From an uncultured Lachnoclostridium sp. (GTDB lineage: Bacteria; Bacillota; Clostridia; Lachnospirales; Lachnospiraceae), in assembly GCA_946415315.1 (NCBI GenBank), contig CAMKRZ010000006.1, positions 4,168 to 68,167 of the forward strand: a DNA stretch of 64,000 bases, written 5' to 3'. This document shows positions 41,108 through 47,867 of this stretch, piece after piece (the stretch's first letter is position 1; the number at the start of each line of letters is the position of its first letter). The position numbers and the translations under genes are program-made. The notes beneath the pieces are model-generated. The model ran no database searches. It was not told the origin of the DNA and saw nothing but the letters and a program-made list of their open reading frames with translations.

Positions 41108-41139
41108 AAATTAAAAGGAGCCTTCAAACTGAAAGCTCC
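41108..41139 (-). terminator. Intrinsic terminator inside the mccB-operon leader (attenuator)
   Basis: Minus strand GGAGCUUUC-aguuu-GAAGGCUCC followed by UUUUAAUUU. It lies 55 nt upstream of the mccB-like ATG. Confidence 0.75.
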
Positions 41140-41170
41140 CGAGCATACGGCATTATCGCATTATCGTCCC

Positions 41171-41311
41171 TTATCTACAACATCGACGGTGATCACGATC
41201 GAGGCGCAACGAAAAGCAGTCGAACGCCCCAGCCATAGGTAATGCCCGGGATAGTTTCAGCATTCGACAACAACACATTACTGTAAGATTGTAGTTAGCA
41301 ACGCTCTTCAT
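41171..41311 (-). CDS. Putative Cys-rich leader peptide (46 aa)
   Basis: GAAAGGAG, 9 nt, ATG 41311. Hand translation gives MKSVANYNLTVMCCCRMLKLSRALPMAGAFDCFSLRLDRDHRRCCR, stop TAA 41173..41171. It is below the ORF-track size cutoff. Confidence 0.5.
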   Translation of the reverse strand: MKSVANYNLTVMCCCRMLKLSRALPMAGAFDCFSLRLDRDHRRCCR

Positions 41312-41341: not shown

Positions 41342-41370
41342 ATGTTAACACCATCAACCTACTATGTCAA
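41342..41370 (-). promoter_or_regulatory. Promoter of the leader/mccB-mccA-metNIQ operon
   Basis: Minus strand TTGACA (41370..41365), 17 nt, TAACAT (41347..41342). The -35 is embedded in CCTATTGACATAGTAGG, which contains the AATAGG half-site of the Rrf2-associated palindrome. Confidence 0.7.
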
Positions 41371-41421: not shown

Positions 41422-42486
41422 TCACAGCAGCCCGCACTCAGGGAACAACCGGTGCGGGTCAACCTTCGCGTATTCCTGCCCGCTCCGCGGGAATGTGATC
41501 TCATACAATACCGTGTCAAAATGGATGTTCTTGGATTCCTCCAGCAACGCCGCGGCGCAGTGCTCCTTCGGCAGTCCGATCACGAAGATCCCGTAACGCT
41601 CGCAGATCTTCTTTGTGATCTCCTGCAGGAAGACGCGGTAATACTCCTCGCGGTCATCCCTGCACAGGAAGAAGGAAAGCATCGGAAAATCAAGCGGCGC
41701 ATCCTCCTTCGGCAGCCGGATGTAACGAAGCGCCGACAGAAGAGGATTGGCGATGCGCGCAAGCCGCATGAGACCGCGGTACCGTTTTACGACATACTGT
41801 TTGTACGGCGTCTGGTTCCAGAGCGCTGCGGTCGCAACGATCTCCTCCCCGTCGAGCAACAACCAGAAGTCACGGCAGTTCAGGTTGTAAAACTGCTCAA
41901 GCGAGCGCACCACCGGAAACAGGTCCTTCCTGCTTCCCTCCCGGTTCAGAAAACCGATCAGCGCGGGCACATCTGCCTCCTCCGCCGGCCGAAACGTCAG
42001 GGAGTGTTTCGGCGCCCTGATCTTCACCTTCGGATTGAAAATGTATGTCCGGTATTCGGCCATCGGCTTCATCGAGATGCTACGCCGCTCTCTCCCGAAC
42101 AGCTTCTTCGCCTCCTCGTTGTCCGTCACGACCGAACAATAGTAGTAATCGATATCATCCCTCTGCAGGCCGTGCATAAACGTGGCGAAATACCCCATGC
42201 CGCCCTCGAGCGCGGCATCCTTCTTCAGCCCGCACAGGTATGCGGCGCGGCGCGCCTCCCCACCGATGTACACCTCGCGGATCAGCTCCGCGCATGTCCC
42301 GATGACGCGGCCTCCGCTGCGCGTCACGAACACGCGGGATTCACCCGGCTCGCGCATATACGACTCGTAGGCATCGGGGCGCCTCGTGTACAGAAGCTCC
42401 ATGCTCCCCTTGGCGGCCGAACTCTCCAGTATGCGCAATATCTCCCGCCCGTCCTCCGGCGTTGCCAGATAGTTTGCTTCCCTCAT
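41422..42486 (-). CDS. Two-lobed GNAT-like (acyl-CoA N-acyltransferase fold?) protein, function unknown
   Basis: 354 aa. The ATGA start/stop overlap with the preceding radical SAM gene suggests translational coupling. Two ~150-aa halves each have GNAT-like beta-alpha patterns (VIGTCAELI...; EIVATAALWNQ...). The assignment is tentative. Confidence 0.5.
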   Translation of the reverse strand: MREANYLATPEDGREILRILESSAAKGSMELLYTRRPDAYESYMREPGESRVFVTRSGGRVIGTCAELIREVYIGGEARRAAYLCGLKKDAALEGGMGYFATFMHGLQRDDIDYYYCSVVTDNEEAKKLFGRERRSISMKPMAEYRTYIFNPKVKIRAPKHSLTFRPAEEADVPALIGFLNREGSRKDLFPVVRSLEQFYNLNCRDFWLLLDGEEIVATAALWNQTPYKQYVVKRYRGLMRLARIANPLLSALRYIRLPKEDAPLDFPMLSFFLCRDDREEYYRVFLQEITKKICERYGIFVIGLPKEHCAAALLEESKNIHFDTVLYEITFPRSGQEYAKVDPHRLFPECGLL

Positions 42487-43823
42487 TTCTTCGATTCCTC
42501 AAGATTTTCCCCGATCGGGATCCCGGAGCGCTTGTCCACCTCAAAATGGAACAGGATATTGATGAACCAGTACGCGAAGTTGATCCGCAGCCCGCGGGCG
42601 CGGCGAAGCATGGTCCATCCTCTTCGGAAAATGGATCCGAACCGGAAGAATTCCTTCTTGTATTTCTTGCATAAATCCCGGAGCTGCTCGGGCGTCAGCT
42701 GCTTCGGCGTGAACGTGATCGTGCCGAACGTGTAGCCGCTCTGCAGCCACCACTGCTCGGAGATCAGGCGATTTTCCGCTTTGAACGACTCGTACGTTTT
42801 GGTGTTCGGGAAGATCAGCAGGTGGTTGAACGCGATGACGAAGAAACGGTGGCGCTTGCAGAACGCGAGCGTCTCCTTGAAGGTATCCTCGTTGTCCTGG
42901 TCAAAGCCGAACACGAAGCTCGCATAGATGCTGATGCCGGCCTTGTGGATGCGCTCGATCAGCTCGTCACGCTCGCCGAGGCGTTCCGTCCAGCCCTTGT
43001 TCATCTGCTTGAGGTTGTCGCTCTTGATGGACTCAAAGCCGATCAGCACCATCTCGCAGCCGCTCTTCTTCATCAGCCGGAGCATCTCCTCGTCGCGCGC
43101 GATGTCAAGCGTGATCTGTGTCGTCCAGATGATCTTGATTTTCCGAAGTTCCTCGAACAGCTCCTTCGCAAACACCTTGTTGGAAAAGATACTGTCATCC
43201 ACGAAGAAGAACAGCTTGTGTTTGCATGTCTTGATCTCCGCGATAATGTCGGCGACTTCCCGGTGAATGTAGTGGGAATGGTAGTATCCGGCGATGGAGC
43301 AGAACTCGCAGTTGTGGTAGCAGCCGCGCCCCGTCTCCACCAGAGACACCGGAAGATACTTCTTCCGCTTATCCTCGTAAATGCTTCTGTCCGGCATCCG
43401 GTAAGCGATGCAGGCACCGCCGTCGTACCTCGGTTTCAACTCGCCGTTCTCGATGTCTGAAAGAACGTCGGACAGGATGCGGTCGGCATTTCCGACCATC
43501 ACGGCGTCCGCATACTGCATCGCCTCATTGGGACACAGCGTGACGTGATACCCTCCCAGCACGACTTTCTTCCCGCGCTTGCGGAACTCGCCCGCGATGA
43601 AGTACGCCCGCTTGGCAGTGTACGTCTCCACGGTGATCATGACGATGTCCGTCTCGGTGTCGTAGTTGATATTTTCGATCCGGTCATCGAAAAATTCTCT
43701 CTCGTAATCGGCGGGAACCATGGAATTCAGAACCGCGATCGTCAACGGCTCCATCAGCCAGCTCTTGAGATATTTCTCGCCCGGTTTCTTTCCGATGGCA
43801 GGCAGTATAAACGTGATCTTCAT
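42483..43823 (-). CDS. B12-binding-domain radical SAM protein (paralogue 3)
   Basis: Start chosen at ATG 43823 (AAAGGAG upstream), giving MKITFILPAIG... It has a Rossmann/B12-like N-domain (DIVMITVETYTAKRAY, GGYHVTL) and the cluster motif GRGCYHNCEFCSI. Confidence 0.88.
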   Translation of the reverse strand: MKITFILPAIGKKPGEKYLKSWLMEPLTIAVLNSMVPADYEREFFDDRIENINYDTETDIVMITVETYTAKRAYFIAGEFRKRGKKVVLGGYHVTLCPNEAMQYADAVMVGNADRILSDVLSDIENGELKPRYDGGACIAYRMPDRSIYEDKRKKYLPVSLVETGRGCYHNCEFCSIAGYYHSHYIHREVADIIAEIKTCKHKLFFFVDDSIFSNKVFAKELFEELRKIKIIWTTQITLDIARDEEMLRLMKKSGCEMVLIGFESIKSDNLKQMNKGWTERLGERDELIERIHKAGISIYASFVFGFDQDNEDTFKETLAFCKRHRFFVIAFNHLLIFPNTKTYESFKAENRLISEQWWLQSGYTFGTITFTPKQLTPEQLRDLCKKYKKEFFRFGSIFRRGWTMLRRARGLRINFAYWFINILFHFEVDKRSGIPIGENLEESKK

Positions 43824-43891
43824 CGCTGCTCCTTTCGTGTCCCGTACAGTTTGTATAAAGCGTATCCCTGCGACAACGCGAGGTTCCGCGG

Positions 43892-45196
43892 TCAATGCTT
43901 TGCAAGTGTCTTCGCAACTTTTTTGTTGTACATGCGGAAGCCGATATTGACGGCAAATTTGATCAGCCCGCCGTATTTATTCCGAAGAGCTCTCCTTCGG
44001 ATCCTCTTGAAGGTGTAGCATTCGTTGGAGACCTCCACCAGCATCTCCTCCAGCTCCTGCGCCGTACAATTCTTCGGCTGAAAAGTCGCGTGGATGCTGT
44101 CATAGTCGTTCCAGTCGCGGGAGAGGATGCGTCCCTCCGCGTCCAGCCGCTCGAACGTCGGCGTGTTCGGGTACGGCGTGAGGATCGCGAAGCGAGGGAT
44201 ATCCACACCGATCTCCTCGATGTAGTCGGGCATTTTCCGAATGGACTCCCTCGTGTCCCCGTCAAACCCGATCATGAAGGTCCCGAGGATCGTGACGCCG
44301 CTTTGGTGGAACTTCTCCACCACAGCCTTGTACTGCTCGACCTTGTTGCGCTTGTTGCTCTCCTTAAGGCTCTCCTCGCTGAACGTCTCAAAGCCCATCA
44401 GGATGCCGATACAGCCGCTTCGGATCATCAGGTCAAACAGTTCCTCGTCCCGGTAAATGTCCGTCGTGCACAGCCCTGCCCACTTGATCTTAAGCGGGAT
44501 CAGCGCCTCGTAAAATGCTTTCGCGTACACGCGGTTGGAGGTCGGTGAGGGATCGAGGAACAGGATCCTCTTCTTGCCGAGCGAGCGGATCTCGTCGATG
44601 ACATCCTCCACCTTCCGCGCCGTGTGGCGTCCGCCCCAGAACGAGTTGATCACGCAGAACTCGCATTTGTTCGTGCAGCCGAAATTCGCGATGACCGTCG
44701 GCACGCCGATGTACTTGCGCTTCGCCATCAAGTCCCGCCTGGGGATCACATTCACCGTGCCGATATCGCACGGCTGTCCGTCGTACCGTTTCTTCGGCGC
44801 CCCGCTCGCAAAGTCCGCGATAAACTCGCGCCAGACCCGGTCTGCCGGGCCGGTCAGCACCGTGTCGGCGTGCTGCGCCGCCTCGTCCGGCAGCAGCGTC
44901 ACGTGGTGCCCGCCCATGACGATGTAACTGCCCTTGCGCCGGAACAGTTCCGCGAGCTCGTACCCACGCTTCACCGAAGACGTCACTGCCGTGATCGCCA
45001 CGATATCGTAGGCATCCATTTTCTCATAGTTGACCTTCTGAACGCCCTCATCGACCGCGCGGAACTCCGCGTGGTACTCCTCCGGCGTCAGAGCCGCGAG
45101 GTACGGCATCGTGAGCGGCATGTAACTGAGCGATTTCGAGAAGGCGCTCCGATACCGGTAGTTGTTATCGTACGGCGTCAGAAACAGAATTTTCAT
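43892..45196 (-). CDS. B12-binding-domain radical SAM protein (paralogue 2)
   Basis: 434 aa starting MKILFLTPYD..., with DIVAITAVTSSVKRGY, GGHHVTL and the cluster motif NFGCTNKCEFCVI. GGAGG lies upstream. The start overlaps paralogue 1 by 32 nt. Confidence 0.9.
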   Translation of the reverse strand: MKILFLTPYDNNYRYRSAFSKSLSYMPLTMPYLAALTPEEYHAEFRAVDEGVQKVNYEKMDAYDIVAITAVTSSVKRGYELAELFRRKGSYIVMGGHHVTLLPDEAAQHADTVLTGPADRVWREFIADFASGAPKKRYDGQPCDIGTVNVIPRRDLMAKRKYIGVPTVIANFGCTNKCEFCVINSFWGGRHTARKVEDVIDEIRSLGKKRILFLDPSPTSNRVYAKAFYEALIPLKIKWAGLCTTDIYRDEELFDLMIRSGCIGILMGFETFSEESLKESNKRNKVEQYKAVVEKFHQSGVTILGTFMIGFDGDTRESIRKMPDYIEEIGVDIPRFAILTPYPNTPTFERLDAEGRILSRDWNDYDSIHATFQPKNCTAQELEEMLVEVSNECYTFKRIRRRALRNKYGGLIKFAVNIGFRMYNKKVAKTLAKH

Positions 45197-46538
45197 CCCT
45201 CTTCACCTCCGGGATATCCGAGTTGTCCGCCATGACATCGGCGCCGAAGATCTCAAACTCCTTCGCGTACTTCCGGTATCCGATGTTCACGAGCATGTAA
45301 ATGCTCTTGATGGTCCGGATCTTGGTCAGATCCAGCCGCTTCCATATATTTTTCCAGGAGTACGCCTCCTTCCACGCCCACGCGATCCCGGCCTCCAGCT
45401 CGTCCTTCGTCATCTGCTTCGGCTGATAGACACAGTGCTCCACGTCGTACATGGCGAAATCCCGCTCGATGATGCGCCCCTGGCTCTCGAGTTCGCGGTA
45501 GAACTCCGTCCCGGGGAACGGCGTGATGATGGAAAATCTCGGCAGATCGATCTTCGCTTCAACACACAGCTCGACGGTGCGCCGGAACACATCCGGGCCG
45601 TCCTCGTCCGCGCCGAACGCGAAGCATCCCATCACCATGATGCCCTTGCGGTGGAGCTTCTTCATGAGTTCCTTGTACTCGCCGACGCGGTTGACACCCT
45701 TGTGGATACTCTTCTGCGTCTCCTGGTTGACCGACTCAAAACCGATGAGCAGGCCCTTGCAGCCGCTCTTTTTGAACAGGTTGAGCATCTCGTCGCTGTG
45801 TCCGATGGCCGTGGTCGTCAGACCGAACCACCACTTCCTTAACGGGATCATCGCCGTGAACAGCTCCTTCGCGTACTTCATGTCCGCGATCAGGTTCACG
45901 TCCGGGAAAATGACCGGCTTCCCCTTGAACGTCTTGATCTCCGCGATGACATCCTCCACGGGGCGTGTGATCACGCGCCGTCCGAACGCCGCGGGATACG
46001 CGCAGAAGGTGCACGCGTGGTTGCAGCCGCGCACGGCTTCCACCGTGTTAAGCGTGATGTATTTTTCTTTCTTCAGAAGATCCTTCCGAGGCAGCGGACG
46101 GTTCGAGATATCCACGCAGCCGTCCCCGCGGTAGACCGGTTTCAGACAGCCGTCGCGGATGTCCAGAAGCGCCTGCGGGAACGTCTTCTCACCGAGGCCG
46201 ATCATAATGGCGTCCGCATGCTCCGCCGCCTCCTCAGGCGCAAGCGACGGATGCACACCGCCGAGAAGCACCTTCTTGCCGAGGCTTCGGAAGTAATCGG
46301 CGTACCGGTAGCAGCGGGAGGAAGTTCCCGTGATGCAGGTGATCGCGATGACATCGGCGTCGGTGTCGAGCGGGATCGCCTCCGCGGTCTCGTCGTAGAT
46401 CACGACCTCCGCGTTCAACTCCGCAGGAACAAGGGCCGCCAGAAGCGCCAGCGTGATCGGCGCGTAGTGCAGTCCCTTGTGAAACATTCCGTTGTACCGG
46501 TGCATCGCCCCTGCGGGCGAGAGAAGTGCTATTTTCAT
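45165..46538 (-). CDS. B12-binding-domain radical SAM protein (paralogue 1)
   Basis: 457 aa starting MKIALLSPAG..., with DVIAITCITGTSSRCY, GGVHPSL and the cluster motif VRGCNHACTFCAY. It starts 12 nt after the permease stop. Confidence 0.9.
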   Translation of the reverse strand: MKIALLSPAGAMHRYNGMFHKGLHYAPITLALLAALVPAELNAEVVIYDETAEAIPLDTDADVIAITCITGTSSRCYRYADYFRSLGKKVLLGGVHPSLAPEEAAEHADAIMIGLGEKTFPQALLDIRDGCLKPVYRGDGCVDISNRPLPRKDLLKKEKYITLNTVEAVRGCNHACTFCAYPAAFGRRVITRPVEDVIAEIKTFKGKPVIFPDVNLIADMKYAKELFTAMIPLRKWWFGLTTTAIGHSDEMLNLFKKSGCKGLLIGFESVNQETQKSIHKGVNRVGEYKELMKKLHRKGIMVMGCFAFGADEDGPDVFRRTVELCVEAKIDLPRFSIITPFPGTEFYRELESQGRIIERDFAMYDVEHCVYQPKQMTKDELEAGIAWAWKEAYSWKNIWKRLDLTKIRTIKSIYMLVNIGYRKYAKEFEIFGADVMADNSDIPEVKRDENSVSDAVR

Positions 46539-46550
46539 AGGTTTCCTACC

Positions 46551-47699
46551 TCAGCGAATCGGGATAAACGAGGAGATCGCCATCAGGATGACGGCGGCCG
46601 CGACGAAAGCGATCAGAACCTTGCTGCCGGAATGTTTACCGAGCAGCAACGGGCTTAACGGATCCCTCATCGCCTGCTTGTACGCGGGCAGCACGACAAG
46701 CACGAGGATGATCGACAGCGCCCCCGCTCCGATCTGCACAACATCGAGGACACTCAGCGGGATCACGATCGCGATCAGCGCGGCAGGCAACGTGGCGATG
46801 AGCCAGGATTTCCTCGGCGATGTCTCAAACTCTCCGCCGACGACATCCGCGAAGGCGATGCCGCTGGACCAGAAGGAGCTGATCATCGCGAACACCACCA
46901 AAAGTGAGCACAATACTTTGACGACCGGCATGCCGATCCCGTCGGAAAGACCGATCGTCGCAACCTCGGTAACCTCCTTCGACCCGAGGATGACCGCGAA
47001 CGCGAACAGCACCGTGAGCAGCGCGTTGAGCGTCAGTCCGCCGAGGAGCGCCCTGCGGGTCAGCTCCGGCTTCTCAATGTGCTCGCACACCTGCAGGACG
47101 GCAAATATCGCGGAAAATGCAAACATGAACAGCCCGTACACCGCCATCACAACGCTGCCCTTTCCGAGCGTCACATTGAGAGTCCCTTTGACATGCGTCA
47201 GTGACAGCGCTGTGAGAACGAGAACGACGCATCCGATCAGGAACACCGACACTTTCTCGCCCCAGCCCATGCCTTTGACTCCGAACATGATAACCGCAGT
47301 GGCGATCCCGTAGAACAGAAACACCGCCGGCTTGCTGTCCATACCGGTCAGATCCGACAGGACGTCGCCCGCGCACATGAGATACACGACAAGGTTTTCC
47401 AGCAGAAGAAGCACGAGCAGCACCAGGAACAGAAGCGATAACCGTTTTCTTCTCCCCTCGCTGAACAGATGCTCCGAAAGGATCGCCAGAAAATCGCCCG
47501 GATAGCTCGAATTGCGTGCCAGGTCGGCGATGATCAGATACAGCGCGGCGCTTGCGGCATAGGCGACTAACAGCGCGACAAACGTTCCGATCACGCCGAT
47601 CTTATCGACCGCGTAAGGGATCGTAAGGATGCCGGTCCCCACTCCCGCTCCTGTCACGAGCATCAGCGATTCCGTAAATGTGAGTTTCTTTTCCTGCAC
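46551..47699 (-). CDS. Amino-acid permease, hydroxy/aromatic amino acid permease (HAAAP; Trp/Tyr/Ser-type)-like
   Basis: 382 aa with about 11 TM helices. The N-terminus SLMLVTGAGVGTGILTIPYA resembles the Trp_Tyr_perm signature. The start is GTG, with GGGAGG 5 nt upstream. Confidence 0.75.
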   Translation of the reverse strand: MQEKKLTFTESLMLVTGAGVGTGILTIPYAVDKIGVIGTFVALLVAYAASAALYLIIADLARNSSYPGDFLAILSEHLFSEGRRKRLSLLFLVLLVLLLLENLVVYLMCAGDVLSDLTGMDSKPAVFLFYGIATAVIMFGVKGMGWGEKVSVFLIGCVVLVLTALSLTHVKGTLNVTLGKGSVVMAVYGLFMFAFSAIFAVLQVCEHIEKPELTRRALLGGLTLNALLTVLFAFAVILGSKEVTEVATIGLSDGIGMPVVKVLCSLLVVFAMISSFWSSGIAFADVVGGEFETSPRKSWLIATLPAALIAIVIPLSVLDVVQIGAGALSIILVLVVLPAYKQAMRDPLSPLLLGKHSGSKVLIAFVAAAVILMAISSFIPIR

Positions 47700-47737
47700 G
47701 TTTGCCTCCCGATCAACAGCGATTGATTATTTTATTT

Positions 47738-47766
47738 ATTGTACCATCGATTAAATGCGGTTTCAA
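47738..47766 (-). promoter_or_regulatory. Promoter of the permease/radical-SAM operon
   Basis: Minus strand TTGAAA (47766..47761), 17 nt, TACAAT (47743..47738). It lies directly after the dapL terminator. Confidence 0.7.
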
Positions 47767-47791: not shown

Positions 47792-47827
47792 ACAAAATCA
47801 GGCGGGACCGTCTTCGGGTCCCGCCTG
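47792..47827 (-). terminator. Intrinsic terminator after dapL
   Basis: Minus strand CAGGCGGGACCC-gaaga-CGGUCCCGCCUG followed by AUUUUGU. Confidence 0.8.
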
Positions 47828-47867
47828 AAACAATTCCTGTTTTTTCTGTTTATCGGCGTTCCGCAGT

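Follow-up and report, generated by a model that had tools for sequence, protein, structure and literature searches.

Radical S-adenosylmethionine (rSAM) enzymes with a B12-binding domain perform some of the hardest reactions in biology. In phosphinothricin biosynthesis, PhpK methylates an N-acetylated intermediate, and the enzyme requires this N-acetylated substrate, which shows that acylation can precede the radical step. Enzymes of this type also come in sets: ThnK, ThnL and ThnP (thienamycin), BotRMT1-3 (bottromycin), GenK and GenD1, and BchQ and BchR are adjacent paralogues with a B12-type Rossmann domain and a CxxxCxxC cluster motif, and each paralogue presumably acts once on one scaffold. 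As in the case of ThnK, ThnL and ThnP, the members of such a set need not all be methylases, and a review of 2026 distinguishes more than 100 sequence groups of B12-rSAM enzymes, mostly unexplored and for the most part without known function (PMC12931638). A similar set, whose members likewise presumably act once each on one scaffold, is encoded in the stretch of DNA analysed here (“the window,” 64,000 nucleotides; assembly GCA_946415315.1, contig CAMKRZ010000006.1, positions 4,168 to 68,167 of the forward strand), which comes from an uncultured Lachnoclostridium sp. Its minus strand carries, from 47766 down to 41422, a five-gene operon for a permease, three B12-type rSAM proteins (rSAM-1, rSAM-2, and rSAM-3) and a tandem-GNAT protein, GNATL.

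All components of the operon belong to known superfamilies. Together they form a compact, strongly conserved module in which the rSAM enzymes of orthogroups A and B are a fixed pair, others are optional, and the dedicated partner acyltransferase belongs to a large family unnamed in databases. The gene order of the operon is shared by 36 species-level genomes and by numerous metagenome contigs, and the arrangement is far beyond chance. Furthermore, this permease-type module represents one of two branches within a much wider system; the other carries a GH3-family protein instead of the permease. A first-pass annotation, made from the letters alone, had called the operon uncharacterised. This is borne out: the operon has a promoter of its own, none of its proteins reaches a curated NCBIfam family, and full-text literature searches found neither the module nor its GH3-type sister nor the GNATL family described.

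Gene content of the operon

The permease gene (46551–47699, minus strand like the other four; 382 aa) begins with GTG, has GGGAGG just before its start, and is preceded at 47738..47766 by a promoter, TTGAAA-17-TACAAT, with an extended −10 TG and 10 of 12 matches. Its stop codon is 12 nt away, as read from the sequence, from the ATG of rSAM-1 (45165–46538; 457 aa, orthogroup B, a B12-binding domain and a radical SAM core), and the rSAM-1 gene overlaps that of rSAM-2 (43892–45196; 434 aa, orthogroup C) by 32 nt. A gap of 68 nt, with AAAGGAG placed 6 nt ahead of the ATG, leads to rSAM-3 (42483–43823; 446 aa, orthogroup A); this ATG is the start common to the relatives, and the mechanical open reading frame (ORF) extends to a TTG at 43895. 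The rSAM-3 gene is coupled translationally to the GNATL gene (41422–42486; 354 aa), the stop of the former and the start of the latter overlapping as ATGA. The operon promoter sits immediately past the strong intrinsic terminator of the upstream aminotransferase gene (47798..47828, minus strand; a 12-bp stem with 9 G-C pairs, then TTTTGTGT), which sets the upstream boundary. With its own promoter after a terminator and with tightly spaced or overlapping genes, the five-gene set is a real operon and a transcription unit of its own. Every coordinate and feature that had been given for the promoter, the five co-directional ORFs, their junctions, the AAAGGAG and the ATGA holds, and a terminator scan agrees with the earlier statement that no terminator separates the operon from the Met/Cys operon downstream: no terminator-like site lies between the GNATL gene and the next promoter (41370..41342). 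Rfam, at its gathering thresholds, found no regulatory RNA in or ahead of the operon. A riboswitch in the operon leader was considered and rejected, on the negative Rfam result and the shortness of the leader.

The N-termini of the three rSAM proteins all fit MKI(A/L/T)(L/F)(L/I). In the order rSAM-1, rSAM-2, rSAM-3, they contain the motifs DVIAIT, DIVAIT, and DIVMIT, then GGVHPSL, GGHHVTL, and GGYHVTL, and the CxxxCxxC cluster motifs GCNHACTFCAY, GCTNKCEFCVI, and GCYHNCEFCSI; all motifs quoted in the annotation are present in the translations. All three pass the Pfam Radical_SAM model (PF04055; 68.5, 80.6, and 75 bits; cut-off 29.5). For the Pfam B12-binding model (PF02310; cut-off 32.1), rSAM-1 scores above the cut-off with 43.3 bits, while rSAM-2 and rSAM-3 stay under it with 26.6 and 28.5 bits and still share the GGxH(P/V)(S/T)L motif. 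The CxxxCxxC cysteines and a further SGC cysteine are kept in at least 95% of the sequences of each aligned orthogroup (A–E). The proteins are paralogues with a B12-type N-terminal domain, as proposed before, and the NCBIfam search places them outside every curated family.

No curated NCBIfam family is reached at its cut-off by any of the five operon proteins. The best scores of the rSAM proteins, 95–101 bits, compare with cut-offs of 481–578 for HpnJ and BchE and of 251–775 over all models matched: rSAM-1 and rSAM-3 match HpnJ best (95 and 101 bits vs. 578), and rSAM-2 matches BchE best (100 bits vs. 481). Models of HpnJ, BchE, PhpK, AprD4, and a ladderane-type lipid rSAM are all matched far below threshold (60–101 bits vs. 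cut-offs of 360–600), and by the NCBIfam cut-offs the three proteins are not members of HpnJ, BchE, PhpK, AprD4, HpnR, TsrM, QCMT, BzaD, KedN5, or TIGR04072. Among solved structures, the nearest to rSAM-1 and rSAM-2 is AprD4 (E 8e-17 and 3e-14), a dehydratase without cobalamin binding (PMC12931638), and the nearest to rSAM-3 are the methyltransferases CysS and QCMT, both at E about 1e-5; the latter structure, 9CCB, is identified as QCMT, a protein methylase (PMC12931638). PADLOC gave weak rSAM noise only for the operon, which is therefore not a known defence system.

An AlphaFold model of GNATL, built with 25 homologues, has two GNAT-like domains (predicted local distance difference test score, 85.8; predicted template modelling score, 0.88). 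A Foldseek search of the PDB with this model returned 215 matches at E ≤0.001, and the 50 best all have the GNAT fold and are aligned across the full chain. The best are Eis-like acetyltransferases (2i00, 3n7z, 2ozg), many N-myristoyltransferases (NMT) and a clostridial glucosamine N-acetyltransferase (5kf2), and the matches listed have E values from 1e-12 to 1e-10, template modelling scores of about 0.5, and identities of 9–13%. The GNAT-like label of the first-pass annotation is thus confirmed at the level of the fold. A sequence search of solved structures gave nothing significant for GNATL, and neither GNATL nor the distant members tested have an NCBIfam family, the latter also being without a Pfam family. 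When 1.84 billion representative proteins were searched with a profile, 2,043 GNATL clusters (representatives at 50% identity) were recovered at E ≤1e-3 and 1,268 at E ≤1e-10. GNATL is an unannotated and very large family, and its proteins are “hypothetical” wherever a source names them. The operon GNATL itself is 64% identical to its best match among the species-representative genomes and 99% identical to a protein from an ENA metagenome assembly (P0001). None of the 185,579 species representatives stands for the species of the window, yet their orthologues of rSAM-1 are still 86–89% identical.

Nearly all full-length GNATL members end alike, in ...E-(C)-G/A-x-L-COOH, with Leu as the final residue in 118/129 and Glu at position −5 in 114/129. 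Other near-invariant residues are Y83, N123, W223, Q230, and Y236, and in the close family G95 and G98 are invariant in a glycine-rich loop after strand 4. NMT and Eis both employ their own C-terminal carboxylate as the catalytic base in the acylation of amines. Probably GNATL uses its conserved C-terminal carboxylate in the same manner, since a conserved, position-fixed C-terminus fits this mechanism.

The permease matches PF03222 (Trp_Tyr_perm, the hydroxy/aromatic amino acid permease family) with 31.2 bits against a cut-off of 22, over residues 8–372 of 382, and its orthologues in divergent modules have the same precomputed assignment. It has no NCBIfam match, and a sequence search of solved structures, profile included, found no homologue. 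Wherever a related locus extends far enough, the permease gene opens the module, and, judged by its family, the permease likely transports an amino acid inward.

Conservation and variants of the module

In a survey of one genome per species (185,579 species), 36 species-level genomes hold the module (loci L001–L036), all from uncultured Oscillospiraceae, Eubacteriales or Clostridia; the carriers with a stated source come from the gut of goat, roe deer, and water deer. By tblastn, the order is fixed: permease, rSAM-B, zero to three further rSAM genes, rSAM-A, and GNATL. In two genomes, the permease and GNATL genes stand alone, without rSAM genes (L026, L027). Gaps within the module are short, mostly <60 nt, the ATGA overlap of rSAM-A and GNATL is widespread, and most related loci have a strong promoter of their own 40–60 nt ahead of the permease gene and a short leader. 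No conserved gene is found on either flank of the 36 loci, and the met/cys and aminotransferase genes that flank the operon in the window are missing by tblastn from all other close loci. Conservation of the neighbourhood had been named as a test that could refute the proposed association; the link of permease, rSAM and GNATL genes proves to be strongly conserved, and the flanks are not. More divergent GNATL proteins (343–358 aa) are still encoded in permease-first modules with two to five rSAM genes. One module with five rSAM genes (L045:690-14657) adjoins RepA_N and relaxase genes, and therefore the module can ride a plasmid or other mobile element.

No conserved small ORF occurs within 450 nt on either side of the module or inside it, where the gaps are too short for one, and neither the operon nor the close loci contain a precursor peptide, a nonribosomal peptide synthetase or a polyketide synthase. 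Inspection of ORFs, neighbourhoods and gaps thus agrees with the annotation on this point. Because a precursor-peptide ORF is missing and would not fit, the operon is not a cluster for peptides that are made on ribosomes and modified after translation (RiPPs).

The rSAM genes of these loci fall into six orthogroups by clustering, with identities of 74–98% within and 30–39% between groups. In the window, rSAM-3 belongs to A, rSAM-1 to B, and rSAM-2 to C; groups D, E, and F have no member there. The arrays seen are BA, BCDA, BDEA, BFDEA and, most often, BCA, which is the type of the window; L032 differs in that its C gene follows the GNATL gene. Orthogroup B is always the first rSAM after the permease, and C is an optional member, present in 16/31 loci and elsewhere replaced or joined by D, E or F. 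Mutual identities are 37–39% among B, C, and F and 37–38% among A, D, and E, compared with 30–35% across the two sets, and distant relatives rank alike; this closeness within sets indicates two ancient clades, B-C-F and A-D-E. Both clades are represented in every module that has rSAM genes, B and A occur together in all complete modules but two, and orthogroups A, B, D, and E are conserved across phyla. Of what had been said about the three rSAM proteins of the window, their paralogy stands; a recent triplication does not, as they belong to ancient lineages, represent three of six orthogroups and are 33–38% identical to one another. Nor is three a defining number, since relatives have zero, two, three, four or five rSAM genes. 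These natural variants are a ready series for assigning one reaction to each enzyme.

At synonymous level, all five genes are equally diverged: in 11 BCA loci, identity at 4-fold sites is about 0.4, which is saturation. In the same loci, amino-acid identity is 90% for rSAM-1, 85% for rSAM-3, 82% for rSAM-2, 75% for the permease, and 66% for GNATL. Saturated 4-fold sites together with high amino-acid identity point to unusually strong purifying selection on the rSAM proteins. Recent horizontal transfer as the cause of their high identity is rejected, the 4-fold sites being equally saturated in all five genes.

Wherever rSAM genes are present in the 36 close loci, the gene directly upstream of GNATL is rSAM-A, and in most cases the two share the ATGA overlap. 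Furthermore, a natural fusion joins an A/E-type rSAM to a GNATL domain (P0267, 817 aa), and in a metagenome sample of 80 loci, of which 57 reach far enough upstream, 43 of these 57 carry an rSAM gene immediately ahead of GNATL. Overlap and fusion suggest that rSAM-A works closely with the acyltransferase.

There are more distant cases. GNATL proteins 29–33% identical to that of the window are encoded in Peptoclostridium litorale DSM 5388, Omnitrophica, KSB3, and two genomes of 7–8 Mb, among other hosts, and the rSAM and GNATL core thereby extends to free-living sediment and environmental bacteria. Each of these sister modules has a B-like rSAM (42–60% identical to group B), sometimes accompanied by D- and E-like ones, and its GNATL gene is preceded by a tightly linked or overlapping rSAM gene. 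The latter is A-like (47–53% identical) in six of seven modules; in L043 it is B-like, and an A-like gene lies upstream on the other strand. The core of rSAM-B, rSAM-A, and GNATL is thus common to the operon of the window and to the GH3-type modules. Most sister modules add a GH3-family protein and a protein of 234–239 aa (“236-aa protein”; L039:11110-11814, L040:11110-11826, L042:11116-11823, and equivalents), which contains the motifs SGDTI..YWG, WFL(I/L)SKG.(R/K)TY, and NPGY..GD.L.C and matches no Pfam family even at E ≤10. By tblastn, neither GH3 nor the 236-aa protein is encoded anywhere in the window or in L001–L036. In the metagenome sample of 80 loci, 23 have long flanks: six carry the permease, 11 GH3, six neither, and none both. 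From this mutual exclusion, the gut lineage seems to import what other lineages make. Apart from the permease, GH3 and the 236-aa protein, no gene recurs as a neighbour of the distant loci in the 80-locus survey.

In the GH3-type locus L042 (L042:2498-10004), a gene for a PEMT/ICMT-type methyltransferase on the opposite strand breaks the rSAM array, and a 540-aa atypical radical SAM protein is also encoded. Three loci without rSAM genes have GNATL near a ligase that is PaaK-like by sequence alone, no domain search having confirmed it. Other relatives of GNATL are fused to an ATP-grasp domain (P0173, P0216, P0223, and P0232, about 720 aa), and one source labels a relative Candidatus Saccharibacteria. 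No rSAM genes were found near the ATP-grasp::GNATL fusions in the contexts inspected, and these fusions therefore widen the GNATL family and not its link to rSAM enzymes. One of them adjoins lipid genes (UbiA, CDP-alcohol phosphatidyltransferase, and CarS-like; L048:3078-12175).

Downstream of the operon in the window, the minus strand from 41370 to 41116 has a promoter (41370..41342), a small ORF, and a terminator (41140..41116) ahead of metY-like and cysK-like genes. The ORF (46 codons, about 41311..41171; MKSVANYNLTVMCCCRML...RRCCR) contains three consecutive Cys codons and a Cys pair further on. The region resembles an attenuator with a leader peptide that senses cysteine; neither a T-box nor a SAM riboswitch is found in it by Rfam. 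The sole Rfam match in the window at gathering thresholds is a Clostridiales-1 small RNA (RF01699; 9282–9459, minus strand, 95.7 bits).

Candidate product and alternatives

From the observed gene content, folds, gene conservation and gene coupling, we infer a substrate class, an acyl donor, an order of steps, a chemistry for each rSAM enzyme, and a direction of transport. Tentatively, the operon may be a self-contained pathway for a small molecule, a radical-decorated metabolite of the N-acyl amino-acid type, a reading that we regard as possible though short of probable. The HAAAP-type permease would bring in an amino acid or an amino-acid-like amine, and the tandem-GNAT enzyme would acylate this amine with an acyl group from general metabolism. 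Each B12-domain rSAM enzyme would then carry out one radical C-H functionalisation of the scaffold, most likely a C-methylation; for the B and C types, an AprD4-like rearrangement or dehydration is also conceivable. The A-type enzyme, rSAM-3, would operate in concert with the acyltransferase, the B type would provide a second and different step, and the optional C/F and D/E types might bring the same pair of chemistries to other positions; the degree of decoration would depend on how many rSAM genes there are and of which type. Environmental lineages would build the needed component with GH3, and the gut lineage would import it. GH3, ATP-grasp and PaaK-like ligases form amides from an activated carboxylate and an amine, and GNAT enzymes form the same from thioesters. 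An amino-acid-derived amide is suggested as the scaffold because of these amide-forming partners of GNATL, together with the family of the permease.

The order of steps differs from that in the first-pass annotation, in which carbon modification came first and N-acylation last. This order finds no support in the loci, as GNATL and the permease occur alone in L026 and L027 and GNATL is coupled or fused to one type of rSAM; therefore, acylation may come first, as in phosphinothricin biosynthesis.

Several points weigh against an N-acyl amino-acid product. The family match of the permease is weak (31 bits) and the import direction is assumed. On GNATL, the Pfam model Acetyltransf_9 scores 21.8 bits, under its cut-off of 25, and the pyrophosphate-binding motif Q/R-x-x-G-x-G/A falls outside the set of positions that reach ≥80% conservation across the GNATL superfamily; an acyl-coenzyme A donor is therefore not assured, and acyl-acyl carrier protein, acyl-adenylate or aminoacyl-tRNA could serve instead. 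Methylases and non-methylating members of the rSAM class are indistinguishable by sequence, and AprD4, the nearest structure to rSAM-1 and rSAM-2, is a dehydratase that binds no cobalamin (PMC12931638). “Methyltransferase” is for this reason a likelihood for these proteins and not a finding, and methylation is not established. The conservation of rSAM-1 is unusually strong for a tailoring enzyme of specialised metabolism. Finally, lipid genes lie near several distant loci (L040, L042, L043, and L048), which favours a role in lipids.

Such a role is the main rival, although we consider it rather unlikely. GNATL would make or modify a lipid that contains an amino acid, for example an N-acyl amino acid lipid or one with an aminoacylated head group; its alkyl chains would be methylated, cross-linked or cyclised by the rSAM enzymes, and the permease would supply the amino acid. 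The neighbours in question are a fatty-acid desaturase and an MMPL transporter (L040), the PEMT/ICMT methyltransferase within the rSAM array (L042), an MMPL/Patched-type transporter (L043), and the lipid genes beside the ATP-grasp::GNATL fusion (L048); they were met in four of 12 distant contexts inspected gene by gene, but the 80-locus survey shows no recurrent lipid cluster, and no lipid gene occurs in the operon or within 10 kb of it in the 36 close loci. The best NCBIfam matches include the hopanoid enzyme HpnJ and the lipid-biosynthesis model TIGR04072 (84 bits, rSAM-3), yet every family score is far under its cut-off. N-myristoyltransferases, which bind long acyl-coenzyme A, are among the top fold matches of GNATL. 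The very strong conservation of the rSAM proteins would fit a function in the cell envelope; however, the patchiness of the module (36/185,579 species representatives) and the plasmid-gene neighbours in L045 are both unusual for core envelope functions.

Improbable, in our estimate, is a pathway that detoxifies or breaks down an amino-acid analogue from the diet, with uptake by the permease, protective N-acetylation by the GNAT enzyme, and transformation by the rSAM enzymes. The two-gene form of permease and GNATL (L026, L027) does resemble a resistance pair that transports and acetylates, the carriers whose source is named live in animal guts (goat, roe deer, water deer), and GNATL has a fold match to Eis-type enzymes, which are known as detoxifying acetyltransferases. 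However, to our knowledge, nearly all characterised B12-domain rSAM enzymes are biosynthetic, and we know of no catabolic pathway with two to five of them in series. The ATP-consuming ligases of the sister modules (GH3, ATP-grasp) also point to synthesis, and the same rSAM and GNATL core is found in free-living bacteria. Modification of a RiPP-like peptide or a cellular protein, with an NMT-like enzyme acylating the N-terminus and rSAM enzymes methylating side chains, as in polytheonamide, bottromycin, and methyl-coenzyme M reductase, is very improbable: it could draw on the action of the fold match NMT on peptide N-termini, on sub-threshold matches of rSAM-3 to RiPP models (ApyD, 56 bits; rSAM_ocin_1, 36 bits) and on QCMT as a near structure, but conserved small ORFs are missing upstream, downstream and inside modules with gaps mostly <60 nt, family scans and neighbourhood surveys find no protease, ABC exporter or RiPP recognition element in the module, and the amino-acid permease and the GH3 and ATP-grasp partners suit small molecules better.

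If the operon is read as a pathway for N-acyl amino-acid-type metabolites, a more far-reaching proposal, doubtful as a whole, can be put forward. In uncultured gut Clostridia, the operon might make N-acyl amino-acid metabolites of a new class, C-alkylated several times or rearranged, which would serve as signals or as membrane lipids; GNATL might be a new family with a C-terminal-carboxylate mechanism; the six rSAM orthogroups might stand for two or more B12-rSAM chemistries that are new and that different phyla combine in tool-kit fashion; and a switch between making with GH3 and importing with the permease might separate free-living from gut lineages. N-acyl amino-acid-type molecules are a class known to act on host receptors. 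The identity of the likely product of this type from animal-gut bacteria would be of interest beyond enzymology.

Relation to known systems

GNATL resembles NMT, Eis, MshD, and 5kf2 in that two GNAT domains are predicted in one chain and the conserved C-terminus is fixed in position; unlike Eis, it has no third (SCP2-like) domain. One of the best-scoring curated models for rSAM-1 and rSAM-2 is that of AprD4 (71 bits each against a cut-off of 500), a radical SAM diol dehydratase from apramycin biosynthesis that has an N-terminal Rossmann-like domain in common with them. Unlike AprD4, the operon has neither an AprD3-like reductase partner nor an aminoglycoside context.

A likeness in logic is found in phosphinothricin biosynthesis, where the amine of an amino acid is acylated by the N-acetyltransferase Pat/Bar, a GNAT enzyme, and this acylation is coupled to the B12-domain rSAM step of PhpK. 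Of the matches under threshold, those to PhpK-family models belong to the better ones (86 bits for rSAM-2 and 102 bits for the rSAM half of P0267, against a cut-off of 600). The family scans and neighbourhood surveys gave no phosphoenolpyruvate (PEP) mutase or other phosphonate gene, no search having been aimed at PEP mutase. Unlike Pat/Bar, the acyltransferase of the operon is a tandem GNAT of a different family. The GH3 acyl-acid amido synthetases (the JAR1/auxin-conjugating family) occur in the sister modules, suggesting an acyl-amino-acid amide as a common theme; the window and the 36 close loci differ from these modules in carrying the permease in place of GH3 and the 236-aa protein. Literature searches found no study of bacterial GH3 proteins in an rSAM or GNATL context, and we know of none.

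Finally, compared with the adjacent class B sets of thienamycin, bottromycin, GenK/GenD1, and BchQ/BchR, the operon has no beta-lactam, RiPP, aminoglycoside or tetrapyrrole gene nearby, and its rSAM proteins score below the family cut-offs. Unlike those sets, the rSAM enzymes of the module fall into six orthogroups, with A, B, D, and E conserved across phyla, that are combined in differing numbers.

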